A stretch of DNA of 24,013 nt, taken from positions 1 through 24,013 of the forward strand of contig DAOVMB010000001.1 of NCBI GenBank assembly GCA_030630905.1. Direction: 5' to 3'. The position numbers and the translations under genes are program-made. The DNA comes from Sedimentisphaerales bacterium (GTDB lineage Bacteria > Planctomycetota > Phycisphaerae > Sedimentisphaerales > Anaerobacaceae). The first letter of the stretch is position 1. Each line of letters begins with the position of its first letter. The notes beneath the pieces are model-generated. The model saw only the letters and a program-made list of their open reading frames with translations, was not told the origin of the DNA and did no database searches. Shown one piece after another: positions 4,224 to 16,618 of the stretch.

Positions 4224-5567
4224 ATGAGCATTAAAGCAATAGCAAAGGGTGCGGCACATTTGTTCGTTAAGAGATATGCCGGGCCGTTCCGGCTGCATAG
4301 AAGATGGCTCAACAAAACACAGTGGCTTAGCTATTCGGAATTACAAAAAATCCAGCTAAAGCTGCTTAGAAGGCTTGTTCGGCATTGTTACAATTCGGTG
4401 CCGTACTACAGGCATTTGATGGATGAATTGAGGATAAGCCCGGAGAGTATTCACACTCTGGAAGACATAGAGAAATTTCCCATAATCAACAAAAAGGAAG
4501 TTTTGAAGGCAGGTGATTCAATAATTTCGACAAAATATCCGAAGTGGGCTTTGCGCAAGGGCCGAACAGGCGGCAGCACCGGGACTCCCATGATTGTATA
4601 TAGAACCTTGTTCTCGCTGGGGACCGAGCATGCGTTCGCAAGGCGGCAGTGGGACTGGGCGGGAGTTAGCATGAGGGAGAAGAGCGCCTGGATATTTCAA
4701 AGGGTGGTTGCGCTGCCGGAGAAGAAGGATGCCCGCCTTTATGATTATGATCCGATAATGAGGGAATTAACGCTCTCGGCTTATCACTGTTCTGCCGATA
4801 CGGCCCTTGATTATGCCAGGATGATACAGAAACACGGCATCAAAGTTGTCGTGGGTTATCCGAGCGCTGTTTACACGATGGCCAAAACGTGCATAAATTC
4901 AAGTTTCAAGCTTGACCTTCGCGTGGTAATAAGCACGTGGGAGGCAATGACCGAACCTATGCGACAAACTATTTCAGATGCGTTTGGCTGCAAAATCTTC
5001 GATTTTTACGGCAGCGGCGAGAGAGTCGTTGCCATACATCAATGTGAACGTGGAAGTTATCACATAGTACCTGAATATGGATTGACCGAGCTGATTCCGA
5101 TGGACGGATGCGAGGAAGGTCATTACAGAGTGGTTTCAACGGGTTTCTGGAACAAGGCGATGCCCTTGATCAGATACGATATGGGCGATGTTGTTGACAA
5201 GTCGGACGACAGTTGTTCCTGTGGCAGAGAGTTTCCGGTAGTCAAATCAATAATTGGAAAAGAAGGTGACATAATACAATCCCCGTCGGGAGTGCAGCTC
5301 GGTGTCACCGCGGTGGTGCAAATCCTATACACTATAGGCGGCACGAATAATATACTTGAGACACAATTCGTACAGGATGCGCTGGATCATATCACTATAG
5401 AATATGTTCCCGCCCCCAAATTCACCGAAGTTGATCTTGCGAATATGCGAAAAAGTGCCGCAAGGTTTCTGCCGCGTGACTTGAAGGTCGACTTTAAGCA
5501 GGTTGAAGCGGTCAAAAGAACACCGATGGGCAAAATTAGAACTATCGTCTCACAAATTGCCCGGTAG
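4224..5567 (+). CDS. Phenylacetate-CoA ligase/CapK-like adenylate-forming enzyme
   Basis: VPYYR, TGGSTGTP (AMP-binding P-loop), DFYGSGE, PLIRYDMGD, CSCGR. This family is commonly embedded in polysaccharide loci. Confidence 0.88.
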   Translation: MSIKAIAKGAAHLFVKRYAGPFRLHRRWLNKTQWLSYSELQKIQLKLLRRLVRHCYNSVPYYRHLMDELRISPESIHTLEDIEKFPIINKKEVLKAGDSIISTKYPKWALRKGRTGGSTGTPMIVYRTLFSLGTEHAFARRQWDWAGVSMREKSAWIFQRVVALPEKKDARLYDYDPIMRELTLSAYHCSADTALDYARMIQKHGIKVVVGYPSAVYTMAKTCINSSFKLDLRVVISTWEAMTEPMRQTISDAFGCKIFDFYGSGERVVAIHQCERGSYHIVPEYGLTELIPMDGCEEGHYRVVSTGFWNKAMPLIRYDMGDVVDKSDDSCSCGREFPVVKSIIGKEGDIIQSPSGVQLGVTAVVQILYTIGGTNNILETQFVQDALDHITIEYVPAPKFTEVDLANMRKSAARFLPRDLKVDFKQVEAVKRTPMGKIRTIVSQIAR

Positions 5568-6627: not shown

Positions 6628-6661
6628 AGCTAATTCGGTGAAAAGGTGACGGAAGTTGGCG

Positions 6662-7288
6662 ATGGGAAACATTAAGAACAGTACGCTGTACAGAACCGTA
6701 GAGTTCATGACACCCACTTTTGTGAAGGTGATAGCCAAGAGGATATTCTGGAAAATCGTTCGCTTTTACAACAGATGCAGATATATCGAAAAGGGAAGAT
6801 TCGTGGAATTTGGGTACAGATTCAGGTTCGACCGTTCTGCCCCTTATCGTGCTCGCGTTGGCGAGAAGACCATCGCCGAGGATTTCAACGTATGGAACAT
6901 CGATCTCGGCGATATAACGGTTGGGAAAAAATGCTGGTTCGGGCTCAATAATGTTGTCATGGGCCCGGTTGAAATCGGCGATGAGCTATCTACCGGCCCC
7001 TACGTCAAAATTCTCGGGCCGAGGCACCCGGTTCCGCCGCAGGTAGCAAAGCAGAGGCAGAAGACCACGATCGGAAACAACGTATGGATAAGTACAGGCT
7101 CGATAATTCTTTTTGGAGTAGAGATAGGGGACAATGCCATAATAAGTGCCGGTTCGGTAGTGCAGAAAGATATTCCCGCCGGAGCTTTTGTCGGGGGCAA
7201 TCCGGCGAGAAACTTGTCCGGCCTTATTCAAAAGGCATGGCAATCGACCGATAATAAACAGAGTGAGAAGGCGGGAAATGAAAAATAA
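6662..7288 (+). CDS. Hexapeptide-repeat (LbH) O-acyltransferase, WcaF/maltose-acetyltransferase-like
   Basis: [49 protein letters not shown] is the canonical LbH C-terminal signature. Alternative TTG start at 6656. Confidence 0.85.
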
Positions 7289-7378: not shown

Positions 7379-7642
7379 ATGGACAATTCTGTTAAAGTCA
7401 GGGAATTCGTAGTAGAAAATTTTCTTTTCGGAGATGGCGAAAAGCTCAAAGATGACACTTCATTTATGGAGGAGGGCATCATCGATTCCACCGGGATTTT
7501 GGAGCTGGTGTTCTTTCTTGAAGAGACTTTTGGCTTAAGTGTAGAGGATGATGAGCTTGTGCCGGACAACATGGACAGCTTGCAGAATATTGCCCGGTTC
7601 ATTGACCGGAAACTGAATGCAAGTCCCGCCGCGGAAGCGTAG
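7379..7642 (+). CDS. Stand-alone acyl/peptidyl carrier protein
   Basis: 87 aa, acidic. GIIDSTGILELV contains the phosphopantetheine Ser (Ser37, codon 7487); also LVPDNMDSL. RBS-like gagggt upstream. Confidence 0.92.
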   Translation: MDNSVKVREFVVENFLFGDGEKLKDDTSFMEEGIIDSTGILELVFFLEETFGLSVEDDELVPDNMDSLQNIARFIDRKLNASPAAEA

Positions 7643-7693
7643 ATTTCGAGGAGAGTTCGAGGGAGCTGTTTTTCAAAGCGTCTGATTTTTATC

Positions 7694-9688
7694 ATGTGTG
7701 GAATAGCTGGTATCTGCCATATAGATGGTCCTGATGGTGTGTCCCTGAATAGTATCAAGAGGATGATAGGTGCTCTCTGCCATCGCGGGCCGGATGAAAC
7801 GGGGATCTATCTCGATGATCAGGTGGGATTGGGCCATGCCCGGCTGAGCATCATCGATCTGTCCTCCGGTGTGCAGCCGATTCATAATGAAGACAAAAGC
7901 CTCTGGATTGTCTATAACGGAGAAGTCTTCAACTACCCGGAATTGAAAGAAGACCTGCTGCAAAAAGGGCACCGCTTCTACACGACATCCGATACTGAGG
8001 TAGTGCTCCATCTATATGAAGAGCAGGGGCCGGATTGTCTGACACAGTTGAACGGTCAATTCGCCATAGCGATATGGGATACGAAGAAAAAAGAGCTGTT
8101 TCTGGCGCGGGACCGGGTCGGCATCAGACCATTGTACTACACGATTCTAAATAATACCGTGATTTTTGGTTCCGAAATAAAATCGATTTTTTCTAACAAG
8201 AATGTCTCTCGCCGGATTGATCCGATAGCAATGGATCAAATCTTTACTTTCTGGACAACCTTGACTCCACGAACGGTCTTCAAAGATATATATGAATTGC
8301 CGCCGGGCCACTATATGAAGACATCCGATAGCAAGGTCACCTTTAAAAAATACTGGGACATTCCTATATATCCGCGTGCCGAACAATCGGATTTGGCTCC
8401 AAAAGAAATCTGCGAGCAGGTCCGGGATCTGCTACAGGATGCAGTCAGAATTCGCCTTCGGGCTGATGTCCCTGTAGGATGTTATCTGAGCGGCGGGCTT
8501 GATTCTTCGGGGGCTGCCGCCCTGGTGGTGAGAAATTTCAATAAGGACGTTCGGACGTTCGGGATACGTTTTGATAATGACGGTTTTGATGAAGGCGAGT
8601 ATCAAAAACTAATGGTTTCGTATCTGAATGTAAATCATACTGACCTTACAGCTACAGATGAAATAATCGGAGCTTCACTTCCTGACTGCTTATGGCACTG
8701 TGAAAAGCCGCTGTTGAGGACCGGACCCGTTCCGTTGTTCTTGCTCTCGGACGTTGTGCGCAAGAGCGGTTATAAGGTCGTGCTTACCGGTGAGGGCGCG
8801 GACGAGGTCTTCGGTGGTTACAACATCTTTCGTGAGGCCAAGGTCAGGAGGTTCCTGGCGAAATATCCGGACTCACAGAGCCGAGCAGAACTTATCGGCC
8901 AGCTTTATCCATATATATTCGACAATCCAAGGCTCAAACGCACGCTGCAATCATTTTTTGCTAAGGGCCTTGATCAAATTGATGATCCGATCTTTTCACA
9001 CTTTATCAGGTGGGAGAATACAAGTAGAATCAAGACATTCTTTTCGCAGGAGCTAAACGAGGCTATCGGGCAATATGACGGTTATGAGCAGGTCAGGCAA
9101 AGTCTGCCGGAAGGTTTTGAACGAGCGGACGATTTTTCCCGAGCCCAATATCTGGAGATGGCGATATTTCTGAGCAATTATCTTCTTTCATCGCAAGGGG
9201 ACCGGGTCGCTATGGCTCATTCAGTGGAGATAAGACTGCCGTTTCTGGATACGCGTGTGATGGATTTTATGGCGAGGGTGCCTGCCAAATGGAAAATATT
9301 GGGTTTGAATGAAAAACATATCCTTAAGAAGTCCTTTGAAGGAATCCTGCCCAAAAAGATTACCAGTCGCCCGAAGAATCCTTACCGTGCCCCCATAAAG
9401 CAGAGTCTTTTAAATGAAAAGACCGCTGAATATACAAAAGAAGCATTGTCGAAGAAGTCACTAAGCAGGGCCGGTTTGTTTGATGCCGGCAAGGTAACGA
9501 AGCTGTTGCGAAAAGTTCAGGCGGTTGACAATCCGAGTGAGATTGACAGCATGGCCCTTGTAGGCCTTTTGTCCTCTCAACTCATTCATCGTCAATTTGT
9601 TCAGAATTTCCCGGCGAGACCTGATAATCCGGTTTCTCCCGCTCTTATTGTGGACAGGAGATCTGAGGCTTTAAGGGCCGTAAGTTGA
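7694..9688 (+). CDS. asnB: Asparagine synthase (glutamine-hydrolysing) family amidotransferase
   Basis: MCGIAG (N-terminal nucleophile Cys), HRGPD, GHARLSIID, YNGEVFN, SDTEV, RDRVGIRPLYY, LSGGLDSS (PP-loop), TGEGADEVFGGY, DRVAMAHSVEIRLPFLD. Confidence 0.94.
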   Translation: MCGIAGICHIDGPDGVSLNSIKRMIGALCHRGPDETGIYLDDQVGLGHARLSIIDLSSGVQPIHNEDKSLWIVYNGEVFNYPELKEDLLQKGHRFYTTSDTEVVLHLYEEQGPDCLTQLNGQFAIAIWDTKKKELFLARDRVGIRPLYYTILNNTVIFGSEIKSIFSNKNVSRRIDPIAMDQIFTFWTTLTPRTVFKDIYELPPGHYMKTSDSKVTFKKYWDIPIYPRAEQSDLAPKEICEQVRDLLQDAVRIRLRADVPVGCYLSGGLDSSGAAALVVRNFNKDVRTFGIRFDNDGFDEGEYQKLMVSYLNVNHTDLTATDEIIGASLPDCLWHCEKPLLRTGPVPLFLLSDVVRKSGYKVVLTGEGADEVFGGYNIFREAKVRRFLAKYPDSQSRAELIGQLYPYIFDNPRLKRTLQSFFAKGLDQIDDPIFSHFIRWENTSRIKTFFSQELNEAIGQYDGYEQVRQSLPEGFERADDFSRAQYLEMAIFLSNYLLSSQGDRVAMAHSVEIRLPFLDTRVMDFMARVPAKWKILGLNEKHILKKSFEGILPKKITSRPKNPYRAPIKQSLLNEKTAEYTKEALSKKSLSRAGLFDAGKVTKLLRKVQAVDNPSEIDSMALVGLLSSQLIHRQFVQNFPARPDNPVSPALIVDRRSEALRAVS

Positions 9689-9751
9689 AGGTAAATAGAC
9701 ATTGTCCGTAATCTATGACTTGCAGACATATTTTGAGTTTTGGAGATTACT

Positions 9752-10714
9752 ATGGAGTTTCACAAAGATATTCTCAAGCTTGACAGCAAAAGCGAGGTTG
9801 AACGTATTTGCGAATTCATTCAGAAAGAACTACGCGATATGAAGCGTGATGGTATTGTAGTCGGGCTAAGCGGCGGTATCGATTCTGCATTATGTGCCGC
9901 TCTTTGTGTCAAAGCATTAGGTAAAGACAAAGTGTTTGGATTGATTCTTCCTGAGAAAGAATCCAATCCTGTAAGTGCTGAATATGCAGCCAGACATGCC
10001 CAAAACCTGGGTGTAGAAACAGAGACGGTTGACATAACACCTACACTCGAAGCTTTTGGGACCTATCGTAAGAGAGATAACGTGATAAGAGAAGTCTTTC
10101 CCGAGTATGACAGTGAGTCCAAGTCGAAAATTACTCTTCCAGCCGACTTACTCTCCAAAGATTCCTTTAACTTCTTTACTCTGAGAATAGACGATGGCAA
10201 AGGCAATGTGAAATCGGCAAGACTAAACAAGAAATCGCTCAATGGAATAGTAGCTGCAACCGATACCAAGCAGAGAACAAGAATGATGCATCTTTATTAT
10301 TATGCGGAAATGAAGAATTATATTGTATGCGGCACAACCAACAAAACTGAAGTCCTGGAAGGATTCTTTGTAAAATACGGAGATGGCGGAGTGGATATTG
10401 AGCCGCTCAGTCATCTCTATAAAGCCCAGGTATATCAACTTTCGGAATACCTTGGAGTAATTCGTGAAATCATAGAAAGAGCTCCGAGTCCGGACACGTG
10501 GAGTTTCCAGGTAAGCGATGAGGAATTCTATTTTCGCATCCCCTACGAAAAACTCGATCTTCTACTTTATGCGTGGCAAAACAAAATTCCTACTGAAAAA
10601 GTCTGTGAAGTTATGGATCTAAGCGCAGAGCAGGTAAAAAGAGCTATGAGAGATTTTAATGCCAAATACAATGCGACCAAGCACCTCAGGCAGTTACCGC
10701 CGACACTTGAATAG
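9752..10714 (+). CDS. nadE: NH3-dependent NAD+ synthetase-like (NadE-fold) ATP pyrophosphatase with a large internal insertion
   Basis: VVGLSGGIDS, KQRTRMMHLYYYA, GTTNKTE, GFFVKYGDGGVDIEPL..LYK.QV, APSPD. No nitrilase/glutaminase domain. GGAG RBS at 9742-9745 supports ATG 9752. Confidence 0.85.
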   Translation: MEFHKDILKLDSKSEVERICEFIQKELRDMKRDGIVVGLSGGIDSALCAALCVKALGKDKVFGLILPEKESNPVSAEYAARHAQNLGVETETVDITPTLEAFGTYRKRDNVIREVFPEYDSESKSKITLPADLLSKDSFNFFTLRIDDGKGNVKSARLNKKSLNGIVAATDTKQRTRMMHLYYYAEMKNYIVCGTTNKTEVLEGFFVKYGDGGVDIEPLSHLYKAQVYQLSEYLGVIREIIERAPSPDTWSFQVSDEEFYFRIPYEKLDLLLYAWQNKIPTEKVCEVMDLSAEQVKRAMRDFNAKYNATKHLRQLPPTLE

Positions 10715-10751
10715 GTAGATCGAATTATTTGTAGCTAAGACGAAGGAACTA

Positions 10752-12380
10752 TTGGATTCAAAAGGATATTTACAAATGATTGAATTCGACCCGACATTAG
10801 TGCATGAGTGGCTTTCCCGCTCTGCTCGGCGTTTTCAGGATAAAGTGGCTCTCGTATGTGGCGAGCAGCGGTGGACTTATAAGGCTCTTGACCAGCGTGC
10901 CGACCATTTGGCTACGGCTTTGCTGGATGCCGGAGTTCGCCGACAGGATAGAGTTGCCGTGTTCCTGGATAATTGTGCCGAAACCGTAATTTCGTTGTAC
11001 GGCATTTTGAAAGCCGGCGGTGTATTTATTATATTAGCCGGCTCGCTCAAGGGCGCAAAATTACGCTATATCCTGGAGAACTCAGGCACCAATATTTTGA
11101 TTGCCCATACAAGCAAAGCCAGGGTAGTAAGTGATGCGTTGGGCGAAGGGATCGGGGAGCGTAAGTTAATATGGGTTGGGCCGACGAAACGAATCCCGGA
11201 ACAGTTTTCGAAATCTTCGCTGGGCTGGGACGAAATATTTTCAGACTTTGTCGATAAAATCGCAGATGGTGAAAAGGACTGCCGGTTACCTCGCTGTATT
11301 GATGTGGATTTGGCCACTCTTATTTATACATCGGGCTCCACAGGTGAGCCTAAGGGCGTTATGTCAACGCACCACAATATGATCTCGGCGGCACGAAGTA
11401 TCATTCAGTATATAGGAAACGTTGAAGATGATATTATACTGGATGTCTTGCCTCTTTCATTCGATTACGGCCTCTATCAGGTTATCATGGCCTTCATGTT
11501 TGGCGGCACAGTGGTTCTGGAGAAGTCCTTCCTCTACCTTCACAGCATTCTGGAGCGAATCGCTCAGGAGAAGGTAACCGGATTTCCCATCGTACCTACG
11601 ATTGTTGCTATGCTGCTGAAGCTACAGAATTTGAAAAAATACGATTTCAGCACGCTTCGATACATGACTAACACCGGAGCGGCGCTTCCGGTCGAGCATA
11701 TTCGCAGGCTCAGGGACATGTTCCCTCAGATGACCATGATTTCCATGTTCGGACTGACCGAGTGCAAGCGGGTCAGTTACCTGCCGCCCGAAGAGCTGGA
11801 CCGAATACCTTCGTCGGTCGGAAAAGCGATGCCGAACTGCGAGGTCTTTGTCGTCGATGAAAATGGCGGCGAGGTCGCCCCTGGCGAAACAGGAGAGTTA
11901 ATTATAAGAGGCTCGAATGTAATGCAGGGCTACTGGGCGGACCCGGAAATGACCGCCGGGACCTACCGAGACGGACAATATCCAAGTGGGAGAATTCTCC
12001 ATTCCGGCGATTACTTCCGCCAGGATGAGCGCGGCTTTCTTTATTTTCTGGGCAGAAAAGATGACATGATTAAGAGCAAGGGCGAGCGGATAAGCGCTAA
12101 GGAAGTGGAGAATAATATTTCCAGTATGGAAGGTGTTGCGGAAGTGGCGGTCATCGGAGTGCCGGACGAGATTTTCGGCCAGGCAATTAAGGCCTATATT
12201 GTGCCGGCACCGGATGTTGAGCTGCCTGAAAAGCAGGTGCTGAAATTCTGTGCTGCAAATATGGAAACCTTCATGGTTCCGAAATACATCGAGTTTATGG
12301 ACAGTCTGCCCAAAACGCCGAACGGTAAAATCGACAAGAAGCAACTCAAAGCAAAGGCCGAAGCGGGCATCTCAGATTAA
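10752..12380 (+). CDS. Class I adenylate-forming (AMP-binding) ligase, resembling the exosortase-associated acyl-CoA ligase family
   Basis: YTSGSTGEPKGVM, LPLSFDYG, MFGLTE, SVGK, LHSGD, GRKDDMIKSKGERIS, LPKTPNGKIDK (terminal catalytic Lys). Start is TTG 10752 or ATG 10776, both preceded by AGGA. Confidence 0.92.
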   Translation: MDSKGYLQMIEFDPTLVHEWLSRSARRFQDKVALVCGEQRWTYKALDQRADHLATALLDAGVRRQDRVAVFLDNCAETVISLYGILKAGGVFIILAGSLKGAKLRYILENSGTNILIAHTSKARVVSDALGEGIGERKLIWVGPTKRIPEQFSKSSLGWDEIFSDFVDKIADGEKDCRLPRCIDVDLATLIYTSGSTGEPKGVMSTHHNMISAARSIIQYIGNVEDDIILDVLPLSFDYGLYQVIMAFMFGGTVVLEKSFLYLHSILERIAQEKVTGFPIVPTIVAMLLKLQNLKKYDFSTLRYMTNTGAALPVEHIRRLRDMFPQMTMISMFGLTECKRVSYLPPEELDRIPSSVGKAMPNCEVFVVDENGGEVAPGETGELIIRGSNVMQGYWADPEMTAGTYRDGQYPSGRILHSGDYFRQDERGFLYFLGRKDDMIKSKGERISAKEVENNISSMEGVAEVAVIGVPDEIFGQAIKAYIVPAPDVELPEKQVLKFCAANMETFMVPKYIEFMDSLPKTPNGKIDKKQLKAKAEAGISD

Positions 12381-12403
12381 CGGGAGATACAACTGACAGT
12401 CTT

Positions 12404-13654
12404 ATGGCAAGCGGAATAAAATTATCCAAAGATATGAATTTGTTCGAGTCTTACGGACGCCTTATCAATCCGGCATATCCTTCATTCTTGAACAAACTGG
12501 GATTGAACAAAGTCGCTACAGGAGCACAGGGAGCTACAATCACCGATTCGGAGGGCAATACTTATATAGATTGTGTCGGAGGGTACGGTTTATTCAACTT
12601 AGGGCACAATAATCCGGATATTATCGAATCCCTCACGGATCAATTGAAAGAGCAGCAGTTGTTGACAAAACCGCTCATTAGTGAAATTCAGGTTAGATTG
12701 GCTGAGTGTATCGAGAAAATTACACCCGGTGAACTTAGCTGCTCCTTTATCCTTAACAGCGGATCGGAAGCCATAGACTGTGCCATTAAGTTAGTCAGAC
12801 TTCACAGGGGCGGAAAAACAATTATAACAGCGCAAAAGTCTTTTCACGGTCATACATTTGGTGCGCTTACAGCCTCGGGTATCCCTTCTTTCAAGAGAGC
12901 TTTTCAGCCGCTTTTGCCTGGTTTTATTAGCGTTCCTTTTGGTGATATCGAAGCCCTGAAGCAGTCAATATCAGCGGATACCGGAGCAGTCTTGATCGAG
13001 CCGATTCAACACGAAGCGGGTATACTCTTGCCCCTGAATGGCTATCTTCAAAAGGTGCGGAAACTGTGTGATGAGCACGGCCTCATTATGATATTGGATG
13101 AGATAAAAACCGGATTTGGCAAAACAGGCCGGATGTTCGCATGTGAACATTATAATGTAGTGCCTGACATACTCGTGTTAGGCAAATCCCTGGGCGGTGG
13201 ATTGATTCCAACCGGAGCGGTCATTGCCAAAAGTCATCTTTGGAAGAGATTCGGCCTGAGTTTCCCCATGTCCGCCTCATCTTATGCCGGTAATGTACTT
13301 GCCTGCCGGGCGGGCCTTTCAACAATCCGGTATATACAACAGGGTAGTCTGCTGGCCGACTGTGCAGAAAAGGGCAAGATGCTCCTGCGTTCGTTAAGAG
13401 ATTGTGTCGGTGAATACCCGAATATTCTGCGGTCTGCTGAAGGATTGGGTCTTTTGATTGGAATAGAAACGCAAAGTGGCAAGATAGCACTCGAACTGGC
13501 AAAAGAAATGATCCGGCAGAGAATTATAATGGTACCGGCTTTCGGCAATTCATCTGTCCTGATGGTCGAGCCGCCATTAGTTATATCATTTCAGCAAATT
13601 CGAGCGGTTGTAGATTCGTTTGCAGCCGCATGTGTAAATGTGAGCAATAAATAA
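12404..13654 (+). CDS. Class III PLP-dependent aminotransferase (PatA/ArgD-like)
   Basis: YIDCVGGYGLFNLGHNNP, NSGSEA, SFHG, IEPIQ.E.G, DEIKTGFGKTG, GKSLGGG (PLP Lys), EPPL. Confidence 0.9.
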   Translation: MASGIKLSKDMNLFESYGRLINPAYPSFLNKLGLNKVATGAQGATITDSEGNTYIDCVGGYGLFNLGHNNPDIIESLTDQLKEQQLLTKPLISEIQVRLAECIEKITPGELSCSFILNSGSEAIDCAIKLVRLHRGGKTIITAQKSFHGHTFGALTASGIPSFKRAFQPLLPGFISVPFGDIEALKQSISADTGAVLIEPIQHEAGILLPLNGYLQKVRKLCDEHGLIMILDEIKTGFGKTGRMFACEHYNVVPDILVLGKSLGGGLIPTGAVIAKSHLWKRFGLSFPMSASSYAGNVLACRAGLSTIRYIQQGSLLADCAEKGKMLLRSLRDCVGEYPNILRSAEGLGLLIGIETQSGKIALELAKEMIRQRIIMVPAFGNSSVLMVEPPLVISFQQIRAVVDSFAAACVNVSNK

Positions 13655-13674
13655 AAGGAGTAGGTGGTAGCTTT

Positions 13675-14670
13675 ATGCAAACATGTAAAAAATGTGTATT
13701 GAACGAACGTTTTATAGGGATTCGGTTTGATGATGATGGTATCTGTAACTTTTGCCGCTCGGCAAAGAGTCCGGATCAACAGCGATCCATCAGGGGTAAA
13801 TATGAAGCCAGATTTCAGAAACTTATTGAAGAGCACAAAGGCAAGGGCAGCTACGATGCTCTGGTGGCCTACAGTGGTGGCAAGGACAGCACATACACCC
13901 TCCACTTGTTACAGGAGCGGTACGATCTGAGACTATTGGCGTACTCCTTTGACAACTGGTTTCAGTCGGACAGGGCCAAGCTAAATATCCGTGCTGTACT
14001 GAGCAATATTAACGTGGATCATTTGACGGTAACGCCGAGCTTCGAGAGTATAAAAAAGATTGTTCTGGCTTCCATGTCCAAAGATATGTACTCGGCCAAG
14101 GCGATGACAAGGGCGTCCAGTATATGCACGAGCTGTATTTCTCTGGTACGATTTATCGGTTTCAGGCTTACTATCGAGCAGGAGATTCCCTTTCTGATAT
14201 TCGGGATGTCGCCGGGTCAGGCGCCGATGGCTACGGCAGTAGTTAAAACAAATCCCCAGATGATAAGAACAATGCAGGAAACACTGCTGCGTCCTCTGTC
14301 CGATCGGTTGGGTGATATTATCAAACCCTTCTTCCTGGAGCAAAGGCACTTTGACAAGGTAGAAGATTTTCCGTACAGCATCAATCCACTGGCGTTTGTA
14401 GACTACGATGAGGATGTGATTTATGAGACTGCGGACAAATACGGATGGAAAAAGCCCGATGACACAGACGCCAACTCCACCAACTGCCTGTTGAATGCTC
14501 TGGCTAACCAGGTTCACCTGGATCAGTTAGGCGTCAATCCTTATGCTTATGAGATAGCTGAATTGGTTCGCGTCGGGTGTATGACAAGAGAGCAGGGATT
14601 AGCCAGGTTGGCGGAACCTTTCCCGGCCGAGCAAATTGCGGCGGTGAAGAAACAGCTCGGAATCGGTTGA
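13675..14670 (+). CDS. PP-loop ATPase, N-acetyl-sugar amidotransferase (WbuX/WbpG/PseA-like) family
   Basis: N-terminal CKKC...CNFC, YDALVAYSGGKDS, C-terminal Y..IAELVRVG.MTREQGL. AGGAG/AGGTGG upstream. Confidence 0.75.
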   Translation: MQTCKKCVLNERFIGIRFDDDGICNFCRSAKSPDQQRSIRGKYEARFQKLIEEHKGKGSYDALVAYSGGKDSTYTLHLLQERYDLRLLAYSFDNWFQSDRAKLNIRAVLSNINVDHLTVTPSFESIKKIVLASMSKDMYSAKAMTRASSICTSCISLVRFIGFRLTIEQEIPFLIFGMSPGQAPMATAVVKTNPQMIRTMQETLLRPLSDRLGDIIKPFFLEQRHFDKVEDFPYSINPLAFVDYDEDVIYETADKYGWKKPDDTDANSTNCLLNALANQVHLDQLGVNPYAYEIAELVRVGCMTREQGLARLAEPFPAEQIAAVKKQLGIG

Positions 14671-14678
14671 TTCATTAC

Positions 14679-15548
14679 ATGAAGGTCAGGTCACTTCAGA
14701 TATTCATAGCTGTAGCAGCTTTCTCGGCTGTTGGGATTCTGACAATGGTTATAACAAGAATGAAAACGAGGACAGACTCTAATAAAATAGCACTGCCGTC
14801 GATTGATGATGTACCCAAAGAATATTGGGCGAAACTTGCTGAGAAGAAGATTTTCTTCGGGCATCAATCAGTCGGGTACAACATTATTGGTGGAATCACG
14901 GATATCATAAACGAGCGAGACTATATAAAACTCAATGTCATAGAAGCACGCGAACCTGCGGCTTTTGACCAACCTGTTTTTGCTCATTCCCAGGTAGGTA
15001 TGAACACGGATCCTTTCTCGAAGATCAAACGCTTTGGGGAAATAATGGATGCCGGCGTCGGGAGCAAAGCCGATATAGCGTTTTTCAAGTTCTGCTATGT
15101 TGATATTATGCGGAATTCGGATCCGCAGGAAATCTTCGATGGTTATCGTGCCGTAATGAAAGAATTGAAGGACCGATATCCCAGTACAAAGTTCCTGCAC
15201 GTAACTGTTCCGATACGTTCGGCGCCAAAGGGAGCCAAGAGAAATCTGAAACAGACAGTTAAGTCGTTAATTGGCAAACCAGGTGTTCTGGACGATAACA
15301 TGATGCGCCAGTGTTATAATAAGTTGTTAAGGAACGCTTACTCTAAAACGGAACCTTTCTTCGACCTGGCCCTGATAGAATCTATCAATCCGGACGGTTT
15401 TGGTTGTCACGTTGTAAAAGGAGCGGAGAAAGTTAATGTCATGGCGCCTGAATACACCGAAGATGGTGGACACCTTAATAGCCGGGGCGGGAAAATGGTG
15501 GCTGAGCAGTTGCTGATAATCCTCGCAGAAATGGCGAGCCGCTCTTAG
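14679..15548 (+). CDS. Membrane-anchored SGNH/GDSL-like hydrolase or transacylase (putative)
   Basis: One N-terminal hydrophobic segment (IFIAVAAFSAVGILTMVI). IFFGHQSVG sits at the block-I position (14859-14870) and EDGGHLN..G matches the block-V DxxH (15462-15473). Block III is non-canonical (KFCYVD). Start placed at ATG 14679, 8 nt after the upstream stop. Confidence 0.6.
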   Translation: MKVRSLQIFIAVAAFSAVGILTMVITRMKTRTDSNKIALPSIDDVPKEYWAKLAEKKIFFGHQSVGYNIIGGITDIINERDYIKLNVIEAREPAAFDQPVFAHSQVGMNTDPFSKIKRFGEIMDAGVGSKADIAFFKFCYVDIMRNSDPQEIFDGYRAVMKELKDRYPSTKFLHVTVPIRSAPKGAKRNLKQTVKSLIGKPGVLDDNMMRQCYNKLLRNAYSKTEPFFDLALIESINPDGFGCHVVKGAEKVNVMAPEYTEDGGHLNSRGGKMVAEQLLIILAEMASRS

Positions 15549-15595: not shown

Positions 15596-16618
15596 TTGAA
15601 CTCATTTGTTGAAAACCAAACTGTTAAAACACTGTTTCAATCGATAGCCGGAGTCAAGCCGGCGGTTGTTTCCCGACAGCCCCGGATAGCCAATATAGAA
15701 CGGTTGCGTATTGTCTCTGCGTTCGGCATTGCCTCCTTTCATACCCATGATTGGTTTCCGCGGAGCATTGGTGTGGCTGGTTTTATTATTCTGTTGCTGA
15801 GTTATTGTGCCTTTGTTGTAAACAAGCCTGAACCATACGGCATCGCCGAGGTGGCAAGACGAAAGGCGCGACGTCTTCTTAAACCATGGTTGTTTTGGTC
15901 GATCATATATGGTGGCCTCGGATTAGCAAAGATGGTTTATGAGAACGTATCGTTTTCAGATGTTTTTTCTCCGACGATGCTTTTGACCGGAACTCGAATA
16001 CATCTATGGTTTCTGCCTTTTGCTTTCGTTGCCGCTTTATTTCTCACTTTGATACATCGAAGAATAGTAGGTATTGCTGACTCATTTACGATTACAACTG
16101 CAATTTCAATCGGGGCTTTATGTATATTTGGCTGTTCAGTTATCCAGTCCCGGCTTCACCCTCCAACGCCGCTGGCTCAATGGACTTTGGGATTGCCGGT
16201 AATACCTCTTGGTTTTGCTATTGGCCGGATCAAGATTTTGCAGAGAACCGAAGACAGAAAAAAGTATTTCGTATTCGTAATTCTTTCGACTTTGACGGCA
16301 TGTGTGGGATGTATGGTGTTTGACCGGTTAAGCTATGGGATATGGTTGAATTACAGCAGCAAATTTGCGATTCGATACTTTGTTTCTTTGATAATATTCT
16401 GTTCTGCATTGCATTGGCGAGGCAAGTTGGATCTGGTTTCAGTGAATTTGGCATCGTTATCATACGGCATTTATCTTGTTCATCCCTTGGTATTGGTTTT
16501 TTTATATCGATTTGGTATAGCTATGCAGCATCCATTTTTGTTGCTGTTTATAGTATTGTCTATTTCGTTACTGATAACATTTGTTCTTAAGAAAACGCCG
16601 TTGAAACAGTTTGTTTGA
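15596..16618 (+). CDS. Acyltransferase family 3 (OafA/NodX-like) polytopic membrane acyltransferase
   Basis: RIANIERLRIVS..GI..FH (R..xD/ExLR motif), RRKARRLLKPWLFWS, HLWFLP, SYGIYLVHP, about 10 hydrophobic segments. The TTG start is uncertain. Confidence 0.8.
   Translation: MNSFVENQTVKTLFQSIAGVKPAVVSRQPRIANIERLRIVSAFGIASFHTHDWFPRSIGVAGFIILLLSYCAFVVNKPEPYGIAEVARRKARRLLKPWLFWSIIYGGLGLAKMVYENVSFSDVFSPTMLLTGTRIHLWFLPFAFVAALFLTLIHRRIVGIADSFTITTAISIGALCIFGCSVIQSRLHPPTPLAQWTLGLPVIPLGFAIGRIKILQRTEDRKKYFVFVILSTLTACVGCMVFDRLSYGIWLNYSSKFAIRYFVSLIIFCSALHWRGKLDLVSVNLASLSYGIYLVHPLVLVFLYRFGIAMQHPFLLLFIVLSISLLITFVLKKTPLKQFV

Follow-up and report, generated by a model that had tools for sequence, protein, structure and literature searches.

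What would a free-standing acyl carrier protein (ACP), with its own ligase and several amidating enzymes, do in the middle of an exopolysaccharide (EPS) locus? The question is raised by a cassette of six genes at positions 7379 to 14670 of a 24,013-nucleotide stretch of DNA (hereafter the window; contig DAOVMB010000001.1, positions 1 to 24,013) from a Sedimentisphaerales bacterium. The original prediction for this DNA held that a nitrogen-rich substituent is assembled on the ACP and exported by two genes lying downstream. We followed up this proposal computationally, and its first half holds as the best reading: the ACP, the ligase and the last gene of the cassette, which encodes a WbuX-like PP-loop protein, are linked in 30–32 of 39 distant loci, the ligase has a substrate pocket of the VinN type, and relatives of the PP-loop protein are fused to ligases or built into nonribosomal peptide synthetases (NRPSs). 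The most plausible, if still tentative, interpretation is that the cassette specifies a small thiotemplate pathway, which would build and tailor an aspartate-derived acyl unit on the ACP.

Layout and conservation of the cassette

As predicted, the six genes are contiguous and none of them encodes a glycosyltransferase. Their open reading frames (ORFs) were confirmed on the + strand, together with their family matches, and are separated by gaps of 20–51 bases. The order given originally, with the ligase next to the ACP, had to be corrected; from 5′ to 3′ it reads:

7379..7642, + strand: stand-alone ACP of 87 aa (PF00550, 23.1 bits, cut-off 20.8)
7694..9688, + strand: AsnB-family glutamine-dependent amidotransferase (TIGR01536, 512 bits)
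9740..10714, + strand: NadE-like NH3-dependent PP-loop enzyme (NF002048, 417 bits, cut-off 313)
10752..12380, + strand: AMP-binding stand-alone ligase (TIGR03098, 484 bits, below the cut-off of 592)
12404..13654, + strand: class-III (omega-type) pyridoxal phosphate (PLP) aminotransferase (PF00202, 284 bits)
13675..14670, + strand: WbuX-like PP-loop ATP pyrophosphatase (TIGR03573, 144.6 bits, below the cut-off of 203.2)

The phosphopantetheine site of the ACP is Ser37, within an IDS motif, and alignment shows that G33, D36 and S37 are invariant across 24 homologues. AsnB retains both its N-terminal MCGI, with the glutaminase Cys2, and its PP-loop SGGLDS, and the PP-loop motif SGGIDS of the NadE-like protein is likewise intact; the likely start of the latter is the ATG at 9752, its homologues being 320 aa long. 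The aminotransferase, whose PLP lysine lies within the motif VLGKS, is closest to putrescine aminotransferase (PDB 4uox, E = 5e-101).

About 100 loci were gathered through genome and metagenome scans anchored on the WbuX-like gene, look-ups of single homologues and genome regions, and their gene content was scored by tblastn and ORF clustering. The complete six-gene set recurs in five independent contigs from metagenome-assembled genomes (MAGs) or metagenomes (loci L001–L004 and L046), and sub-sets occur in dozens of more distant loci; therefore, the arrangement is more than chance. The recurrence of the genes elsewhere, on which the original prediction had staked itself, is thus widespread for sub-sets, but confined to close relatives for the full set. 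Indeed, the full set co-occurs only at a PP-loop protein identity of 91% or more, that is, in close Sedimentisphaerales relatives, the MAGs of which are placed in Sedimentisphaerales/Phycisphaerae. In the wider clade AsnB is lost from L048 and the NadE-like gene from L005, L010, L051 and L052, and the aminotransferase does not occur below 49% identity of the PP-loop protein and always lies immediately 5′ of the PP-loop gene. A distant sample was defined as 39 loci of at least 7 kb whose anchor PP-loop protein is at most 65% identical; here the ligase was found in 32, the ACP in 30, the NadE-like gene in 16, AsnB in 8 and the aminotransferase in 7. The ACP, the ligase and the PP-loop gene are still found at ~41% identity. 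These counts therefore point to a deep core made of ACP, ligase and PP-loop gene, usually accompanied by one amidating enzyme.

Around the core, other recurrent neighbours vary: a polysaccharide deacetylase with DUF3473, a DegT aminotransferase, FemAB-like GNATs, epimerases, methyltransferases and Wzx. Insertions of 2–6 kb separate the ACP from AsnB in L005, L051 and L052, and the NadE-like gene from the ligase in L007 and L009. A protein of 305–376 aa with no Pfam match recurs in five loci just 5′ of the aminotransferase/PP-loop pair (e.g., L016:7626-8756 and L017:6460-7452); in L017 it occupies the place that the NadE-like gene has in the window.

Four of the six genes also form a module of their own. 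AsnB, ACP, ligase and NadE-like genes stand alone in Sinorhizobium and Mesorhizobium, to which a tblastn search of plasmids with the NadE-like protein led, and in other planctomycetes (41–57% identity). They lie in a row on Sinorhizobium megaplasmids (44–56% identity), adopt the order nadE-asnB-ligase-ACP in Mesorhizobium and, as planctomycete quartets, are found in two complete genomes (L140 and L141). The same DNA is present at 1451554-1453452 of S. meliloti 1021 pSymB, adjoining minCDE; other S. meliloti records annotate the match as asnB, acyl carrier protein, adenylate-forming enzyme and nadE. The cassette ACP and that of the pSymB module share 56% identity, and the cassette AsnB is 43–46% identical to those of the rhizobial modules. 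Moreover, the pocket motifs of the S. meliloti ligase (AFDYGLY and TECKRC) are the same as those of the cassette ligase and recur in the modules of L132/L133 (pSymB), L131, L140 and L141, although the gene order differs slightly.

This four-gene module fits the operon type of the S. meliloti ACP SMb20651 and ligase SMb20650; since the 1021 record is unannotated, L132/L133 were matched to the named genes by gene order and by the description in the papers. The genes smb20651 and smb20650 are co-transcribed, and SMb20650 cannot replace FadD (PMC7232532). According to the account relayed there, co-expression of SMb20650 acylates holo-SMb20651 in E. coli (PMC7232532, citing Ramos-Vega 2009, PMID 19118366). 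Loading of the ACP by the ligase, as originally supposed, is thus affirmed for the S. meliloti homologues only, to the extent of that account. Likewise, the statement that no biochemical description exists stands for the six-gene set and not for four of its members, which make up an operon type already known from S. meliloti (asnB-ACP-ligase-nadE1). The cassette is the widespread asnB-ACP-ligase-nadE module plus an aminotransferase/PP-loop pair, and this pair occurs together only in the nearer relatives.

Ligase pocket, PP-loop protein and amidating enzymes

The substrate of the ligase was approached through its pocket. At full length, the top PDB matches are NRPS adenylation (A) domains and the stand-alone enzyme VinN; with residues 222–350, VinN (3wv4) is the top match (E = 1e-17, runner-up 2e-10), followed by 4-coumarate-CoA ligases and then by NRPS A domains. 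VinN adenylates the β-carboxyl of 3-methylaspartate or aspartate and loads the free ACP VinL, and its recognition residues are located on a β13-β14 loop one residue shorter than that of α-amino-acid domains (PMC11253843, PMC7756342). In the pocket alignment there is one single-residue gap, outside the recognition motifs. After correction of a 16-residue numbering offset of the PDB chain, D230, F231, S299, K330 and R331 of VinN pair with D238, Y239, T308, K339 and R340 of the ligase, so that all five substrate-recognition positions match, and the β13-β14 loop TECKR is identical and ungapped. Therefore, the ligase is predicted to load L-Asp, or a close analogue, onto the ACP via the side-chain carboxyl. 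Its predicted product is an isoaspartyl-type thioester with a free α-amino group and a free α-carboxylate. Ligases with at least 42% identity (class 1), among them the rhizobial ones, retain the VinN-type motifs with few exceptions.

The WbuX-like protein carries an N-terminal zinc ribbon (C4xxC7...G22-I-C24xxC27) and the PP-loop S67GGKDS72. The published signatures of N-acetyl sugar amidotransferases (NASATs) are a PP-loop SGGxDS and a tetracysteine motif CxxCxn[GN]xCxxC (PMC10607449), and both are present. TIGR03573 is its best family match, with a full-length alignment, yet the score is below the cut-off, and its family relatives reach 92–166 bits. The AlphaFold2 (AF2) model (pLDDT 94) aligns with LpNASAT (8wex) over 306 residues with Z = 24.5 and rmsd 3.4 in VIA-align, while Foldseek gives E = 6e-15 and TM 0.72. 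We found no evidence that 8weu and 8wev, the PDB entries numbered beside 8wex, stem from the same NASAT study. The next structure matches are the [4Fe-4S] PP-loop thiolases TtuA and NcsA (Z ~12), followed at Z ~10–11 by other PP-loop enzymes including NadE, TilS, YcfA and LarE.

Sequence identity to canonical NASATs is 21–26%. In addition to the zinc ribbon and PP-loop, the protein has three cysteines, C151, C154 and C271, that are invariant in 41 family members and also in homologues just 26–30% identical; three NASATs named by PGAP, one of which adjoins HisH and AglZ/HisF2, have no cysteine at these positions. The zinc ribbon is followed by the PP-loop, the CxxC pair 79 residues further on and, after another 117, the distal Cys; the structural alignment with TtuA spans the three-cysteine region. 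A sequence search of the PDB with residues 136–300 gave no matches.

A search of the representative library returned 3520 relatives of the WbuX-like protein, 115 of them at E < 1e-30, and many are fusions. In P0260 and P0327 a ligase is fused to the PP-loop domain, the ligase of P0260 having VinN motifs; in P0380 the PP-loop domain is inserted in an A domain, with a thiolation (T) domain after it; P0377, P0391 and P0371 contain modules of the type C-A-(PP-loop)-T, where C is the condensation domain. An NRPS on a Roseovarius plasmid (L127:6415-14463) also contains the PP-loop domain. To our knowledge, A domains interrupted by a NASAT-fold, three-cysteine PP-loop domain have not been described, and a literature search for NASAT together with ACP gave no match. 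Because its relatives are fused to ligases or lie inside NRPS modules, the WbuX-like protein most likely acts on a carrier-bound unit and not on a sugar; fusion and conserved adjacency together argue that the clade works on thioester-tethered substrates. The protein belongs to an uncharacterised sister group of the sugar amidotransferases, members of which are elsewhere fused into peptide-assembly enzymes. A complex prediction for the ACP and the PP-loop protein, which scored 0.36 against 0.55 for one control, was not used as evidence.

What the PP-loop protein transfers is a separate matter. The original count of four N-transferring enzymes is doubtful in its case, since this assignment relies on a sub-threshold family match. 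It could instead be an iron-sulfur, carrier-protein-dependent thioamide or thioacid synthetase, a possibility that we consider unlikely. A TtcA/TtuA homologue, sought for a profile comparison, was not found in its own genome, which is 64% complete, and three complete relatives have one PF01171 gene each, probably TilS.

As for the NadE-like protein, the name NAD synthase is doubtful because the gene is a second copy, a glutamine-dependent NadE being encoded on contig C142:1535-2311 of the same genome, and because it accompanies the ACP module across phyla (rhizobial plasmids and the planctomycete genomes G070 and G095). Members of the NCBIfam NF002048 subfamily may thus be misnamed. Outside the clade of the window, PP-loop-anchored loci have AsnB or the NadE-like gene, rarely both. 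We considered whether the two are simple alternatives; this is contradicted by the rhizobial and planctomycete modules, which carry both, and therefore the two enzymes are not simply interchangeable.

Locus setting, proposed pathway and alternatives

All 19 genes of the window are co-directional. Pfam and NCBIfam matches identify an EPS locus with GT2 and GT1 glycosyltransferases, PssD/PssE, a hexapeptide acyltransferase, an exosortase fusion, a Wzc-like kinase, a priming transferase and a PrsT-like TPR protein. Three of the cassette's neighbours could handle its product:

6656..7288, + strand: hexapeptide-repeat (LbH) acyltransferase, just 5′ of the ACP (Pfam Hexapep; NCBIfam matches weak)
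14679..15548, + strand: membrane-anchored SGNH/GDSL-like protein, a variable accessory (PF00657, 26 bits)
15596..16618, + strand: AT3-family membrane acyltransferase, a variable accessory (PF01757, 76 bits)

The Hexapep gene lies 5′ of the ACP in L001–L004, L046, L048, L051, L052, L017 and L019, and adjoins the ACP down to 57–62% anchor identity. The SGNH protein has an N-terminal transmembrane segment after Met35 of the long ORF; its gene is absent from L005, L006, L016, L019 and L051. AT3 is restricted to close relatives, several of which lack it, so that one or both genes of the pair are lacking in L005, L006, L016, L017, L019, L051, L052 and most distant loci. Because the pair comes and goes, the originally proposed export through AT3/SGNH is not supported as an obligatory exit. 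At 4224-5567, amid the glycosyltransferases, the window also encodes a PaaK/F390-synthetase-like (CapK-type) adenylating enzyme; a similar gene adjoins a GATase_7 protein in L016.

The core is also found outside glycan loci. The planctomycete locus L041 (6541-14507) reads START/cyclase-AsnB-ACP-PP-loop-DUF1330-AAA/AvrD-like-MFS-porin; the cluster, whose trio of ACP, AsnB and PP-loop genes has no ligase, looks like a small-molecule rather than a glycan pathway. On the conjugative plasmid NZ_CP009349.1 of B. thuringiensis HD1002 (L126, 321017-339979), a hydrolase/esterase, an ACP and a PP-loop homologue are followed in series by two adenylating enzymes, two carrier proteins, a ketosynthase (KS), a thioesterase (TE), FabZ, a KS-like protein, FabG and AsnB. 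This homologue, 36% identical and annotated as 7-cyano-7-deazaguanine synthase, belongs to a culturable system for studying the PP-loop family.

The pathway that we propose would run as follows. Judging from its pocket, the ligase would adenylate the β-carboxyl of L-aspartate, or of an analogue such as 3-methylaspartate, and load the 87-aa ACP, giving an isoaspartyl thioester. The free α-carboxylate would then be adenylated and amidated by AsnB with glutamine, by the NadE-like enzyme with ammonia, or by both. The PP-loop enzyme, whose carrier-bound substrate is suggested by the fusions, would adenylate an amide or carboxyl oxygen of the ACP-bound intermediate and replace it: by sulfur, giving a thioamide or thioacid, if the three cysteines hold a [4Fe-4S] cluster as in CtaC and TtuA; otherwise by nitrogen, giving an amidine or nitrile. 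Both outcomes have precedents among PP-loop enzymes, namely CtaC, TtuA and the Fe-S LarE for sulfur, the NASATs for nitrogen, and QueC or ArtA for the nitrile. The sulfur-installing version of the pathway is, in our judgment, improbable. The class-III aminotransferase may act on an amino or carbonyl group of the unit, or make an acceptor amine. Finally, and speculatively, the unit might be passed to the EPS or another acceptor by the hexapeptide acyltransferase or, here, by the AT3/SGNH pair; the hexapeptide enzyme is a candidate either for N-acetylating the tethered amino acid or for transferring it to the acceptor.

Several observations weigh against the aspartate pathway or parts of it. The acyl forms of SMb20651 in E. 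coli are reportedly C12:0 and C18:0, which would point to fatty acids. A second class of ligases (29–38% identity) is devoid of the amino-binding Asp and of the Lys-Arg pair and lies beside about a third of the distant ACP-linked PP-loop genes; because of this class, the PP-loop step cannot depend on aspartate as such. The isoaspartyl unit would offer one free carboxylate, yet there are two amidating enzymes in the window and in rhizobia, which leaves one of them with no assigned substrate, and the aminotransferase is hard to place in the pathway. Nor does any one transferase accompany the cassette in all loci. As regards sulfur, no sulfur-mobilising gene is present in the window, and the third cysteine lies in STNC in the WbuX-like protein versus SSSGC, a primer-derived sequence, in CtaC.

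The fatty-acyl forms just mentioned are one of the arguments for a lipid pathway, in which the ligase would load a fatty acid and the amidating enzymes would build an N-acyl amide, an amino-lipid head group or a lipid anchor. Acylation of the ACP upon co-expression of the S. meliloti ligase homologue, as relayed in PMC7232532, is compatible with this scenario, as are the KS, FabZ and FabG of the Bacillus cluster and the best NCBIfam match of the ACP, a sub-cut-off hit to the ornithine-lipid ACP, a component of a pathway found in planctomycetes (PMC12493201). We nevertheless regard it as unlikely, considering that the ligase pocket retains the amino-binding Asp and the VinN Lys-Arg pair, that the pocket's matches after VinN are 4-coumarate-CoA ligases and NRPS A domains, the latter also leading at full length, and that SMb20650 is unable to replace FadD (PMC7232532). 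Its ornithine-lipid (OlsH/OlsI) form was rejected: the ACP scores 57 bits against a cut-off of 130, and the OlsH pathway is a different one that needs a GH3-like enzyme, none of which is in the cassette.

Quite unlikely, in our view, is a set of independent sugar modifications with no common tethered intermediate, whereby AsnB would amidate a uronic acid (WbpS-type), the WbuX-like enzyme would make an acetamidino sugar, the aminotransferase an amino sugar, and the ACP and ligase would supply a separate acyl decoration. The cassette does sit amid glycosyltransferases, an exosortase, a Wzc and a priming transferase, its last protein has the LpNASAT fold overall and matches TIGR03573 best and along its whole length, and AsnB homologues adjoin canonical NASATs in glycan loci such as L129 of Agrobacterium. 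However, the TIGR03573 score is below the cut-off, canonical NASATs are devoid of the three-cysteine set, no HisH/HisF-type ammonia partners were found in the window with Pfam and NCBIfam, and sugar aminotransferases are usually DegT-type and not class-III. The linkage of ACP, ligase and PP-loop gene holds across differing glycan loci and in non-glycan clusters, and PP-loop domains of the clade are fused to ligases and NRPS modules. D-alanylation offers another model, since it employs a ligase, a carrier protein, a membrane acyltransferase and an SGNH-like protein: by a Dlt-like mechanism, the ACP-bound unit would be the donor for AT3, and the anchored SGNH protein would place it on the glycan or on exosortase-processed proteins. 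The position of the two genes directly 3′ of the cassette, the N-terminal anchor of the SGNH protein and the SGNH-like genes near the module in some distant loci (L017, L106, L108, L111, L118 and L122) are in line with this idea. On the other hand, AT3, SGNH or both are missing from many cassette-bearing loci, the rhizobial and Bacillus modules are devoid of the pair, and the AT3 enzymes characterised so far use acyl-CoA donors and not a carrier protein, making such a route rather improbable.

If the aspartate pathway is taken as a guide, the orphan SMb20651 operon type gains its first specific hypothesis, namely loading of aspartate through its β-carboxyl. It is also probable that proteins labelled N-acetyl sugar amidotransferase, QueC or TilS, likely in error, make up a large family of tailoring enzymes that depend on a carrier protein, and the surface glycans of uncultured anaerobes may bear amino-acid-derived amide, amidine or thioamide groups made by natural-product logic. 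For every proposed step a specific change in the mass of the small ACP is expected, which makes the hypotheses testable in vitro. Should the sulfur version be true, the EPS of an anaerobic planctomycete, or one of its exosortase substrates, would bear a sulfur-containing group derived from aspartate and made on an ACP. This would be the first glycan substituent known to be thioamidated, and the large NASAT-fold sister family, including the in-line NRPS domains, would consist of thiotemplated O-to-S tailoring enzymes.

Comparison with known systems

The closest system is the S. meliloti asnB-smb20651-smb20650-nadE1 operon, which has the same four adjacent families (43–56% identity) and the same ligase pocket motifs. 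Its ACP is, by the account cited above, a proven holo-ACP that is acylated on ligase co-expression; unlike the cassette, the operon has no aminotransferase, no WbuX-like PP-loop gene and no polysaccharide context. Side-chain loading of an acidic amino acid onto a free ACP by a stand-alone enzyme, in preparation for tailoring, is the common principle of VinN/VinL/VinO (vicenistatin), BolO/BolC/BolN and BtrI/BtrJ/BtrK (butirosin). In these pathways a PLP decarboxylase (VinO, BolN or BtrK) acts on the tethered amino acid. The cassette has no such enzyme, and Pfam and NCBIfam found no decarboxylase family among the 19 ORFs of the window; in its place there are two amidating enzymes, an aminotransferase and a PP-loop enzyme.

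For the PP-loop step, the comparison is with CtaC of closthioamide biosynthesis, an iron-sulfur enzyme of the PP-loop type whose thioamidation is limited to substrates bound to a carrier protein (PMC6772006). Compared by published positions, D77/S78, C154, C157 and C284 of CtaC and S72, C151, C154 and C271 of the WbuX-like protein are similar in order and spacing; a fingerprint search found the exact residue numbering of CtaC in none of 150 representatives. CtaC homologues lie near NRPS genes, as do WbuX-like relatives, and both occur in anaerobes. By overall structure, the TtuA-type enzymes (Z ~12) are further from the model than LpNASAT (Z 24.5). The sugar amidotransferases WbuX, PseA, WbpG and LpNASAT (8wex) share with it the fold, the zinc tetracysteine motif and the SGGKDS PP-loop (PMC10607449), but the WbuX-like protein differs in its three additional invariant cysteines, in having no HisH/HisF partners and in being linked or fused to carrier machinery.

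The exosortase-A set (TIGR03098-03101 and TIGR03108) had been brought up in the original prediction, which pointed out that exosortase A loci have ligase (TIGR03098) and amidotransferase (TIGR03108) families of their own. TIGR03098 is indeed the best NCBIfam match of the ligase, and an exosortase locus surrounds the cassette; however, both matches are below their cut-offs (484 against 592 bits for the ligase; 465 against 817 for AsnB with TIGR03108, its second-best match after the generic TIGR01536). The exosortase of the window, by its own scores, is not XrtA (137 bits against 208), its best match being XrtD (174 against 400). The distant locus L039 couples the module to a hydrolase of the fused TIGR03100/03101 type, a 657-aa protein (L039:7360-9333, − strand) made of two α/β hydrolases that score below the family cut-offs, directly 3′ of NadE-like-ACP-ligase-PP-loop. 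True TIGR03098 ligases, above the cut-off, are found in L134–L138 (planctomycete genomes G063, G129, G055, G173 and G108). An ACP lies 5′ of them in 4/5 cases and a TIGR03099-like PLP decarboxylase (409–433 bits) directly 3′, again in 4/5, and their pockets retain the amino-binding Asp and one Arg (SFDxGLN, TEAFRS). This arrangement mirrors the logic of VinL/VinN/VinO and, by analogy, suggests that the XrtA cassette makes a decarboxylated aminoacyl-ACP, for instance of the β-alanyl type. With their TEAFRS loop and decarboxylase neighbour, these ligases differ from the cassette ligase, which has TECKR and no decarboxylase.

Dlt systems combine the MBOAT protein DltB with DltD; here, ligase and carrier are present and the membrane acyltransferase is AT3. 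Another ACP-based route to a surface polysaccharide, the tetronate pathway of V. cholerae, includes a hexapeptide acyltransferase. The V. cholerae O1 pathway with RfbK (ACP) and RfbL (ligase) (Morona 1995, PMID 8529890, as cited in PMC12208996) likewise builds an unusual acyl substituent on an ACP within a surface-polysaccharide locus, but its substrate is 2,4-dihydroxybutyrate, tailoring is by a reductase and a dehydrogenase, and it is not known to include PP-loop enzymes. A literature search combining exosortase, asparagine synthase and ACP gave no match. Taken together, the general logic of the cassette has precedents in RfbK/RfbL, BtrI/J/K, VinL/N/O and CtaC, while the combination found in this exosortase locus, an orphan module joined by an aminotransferase and a NASAT-fold, three-cysteine enzyme, is new.

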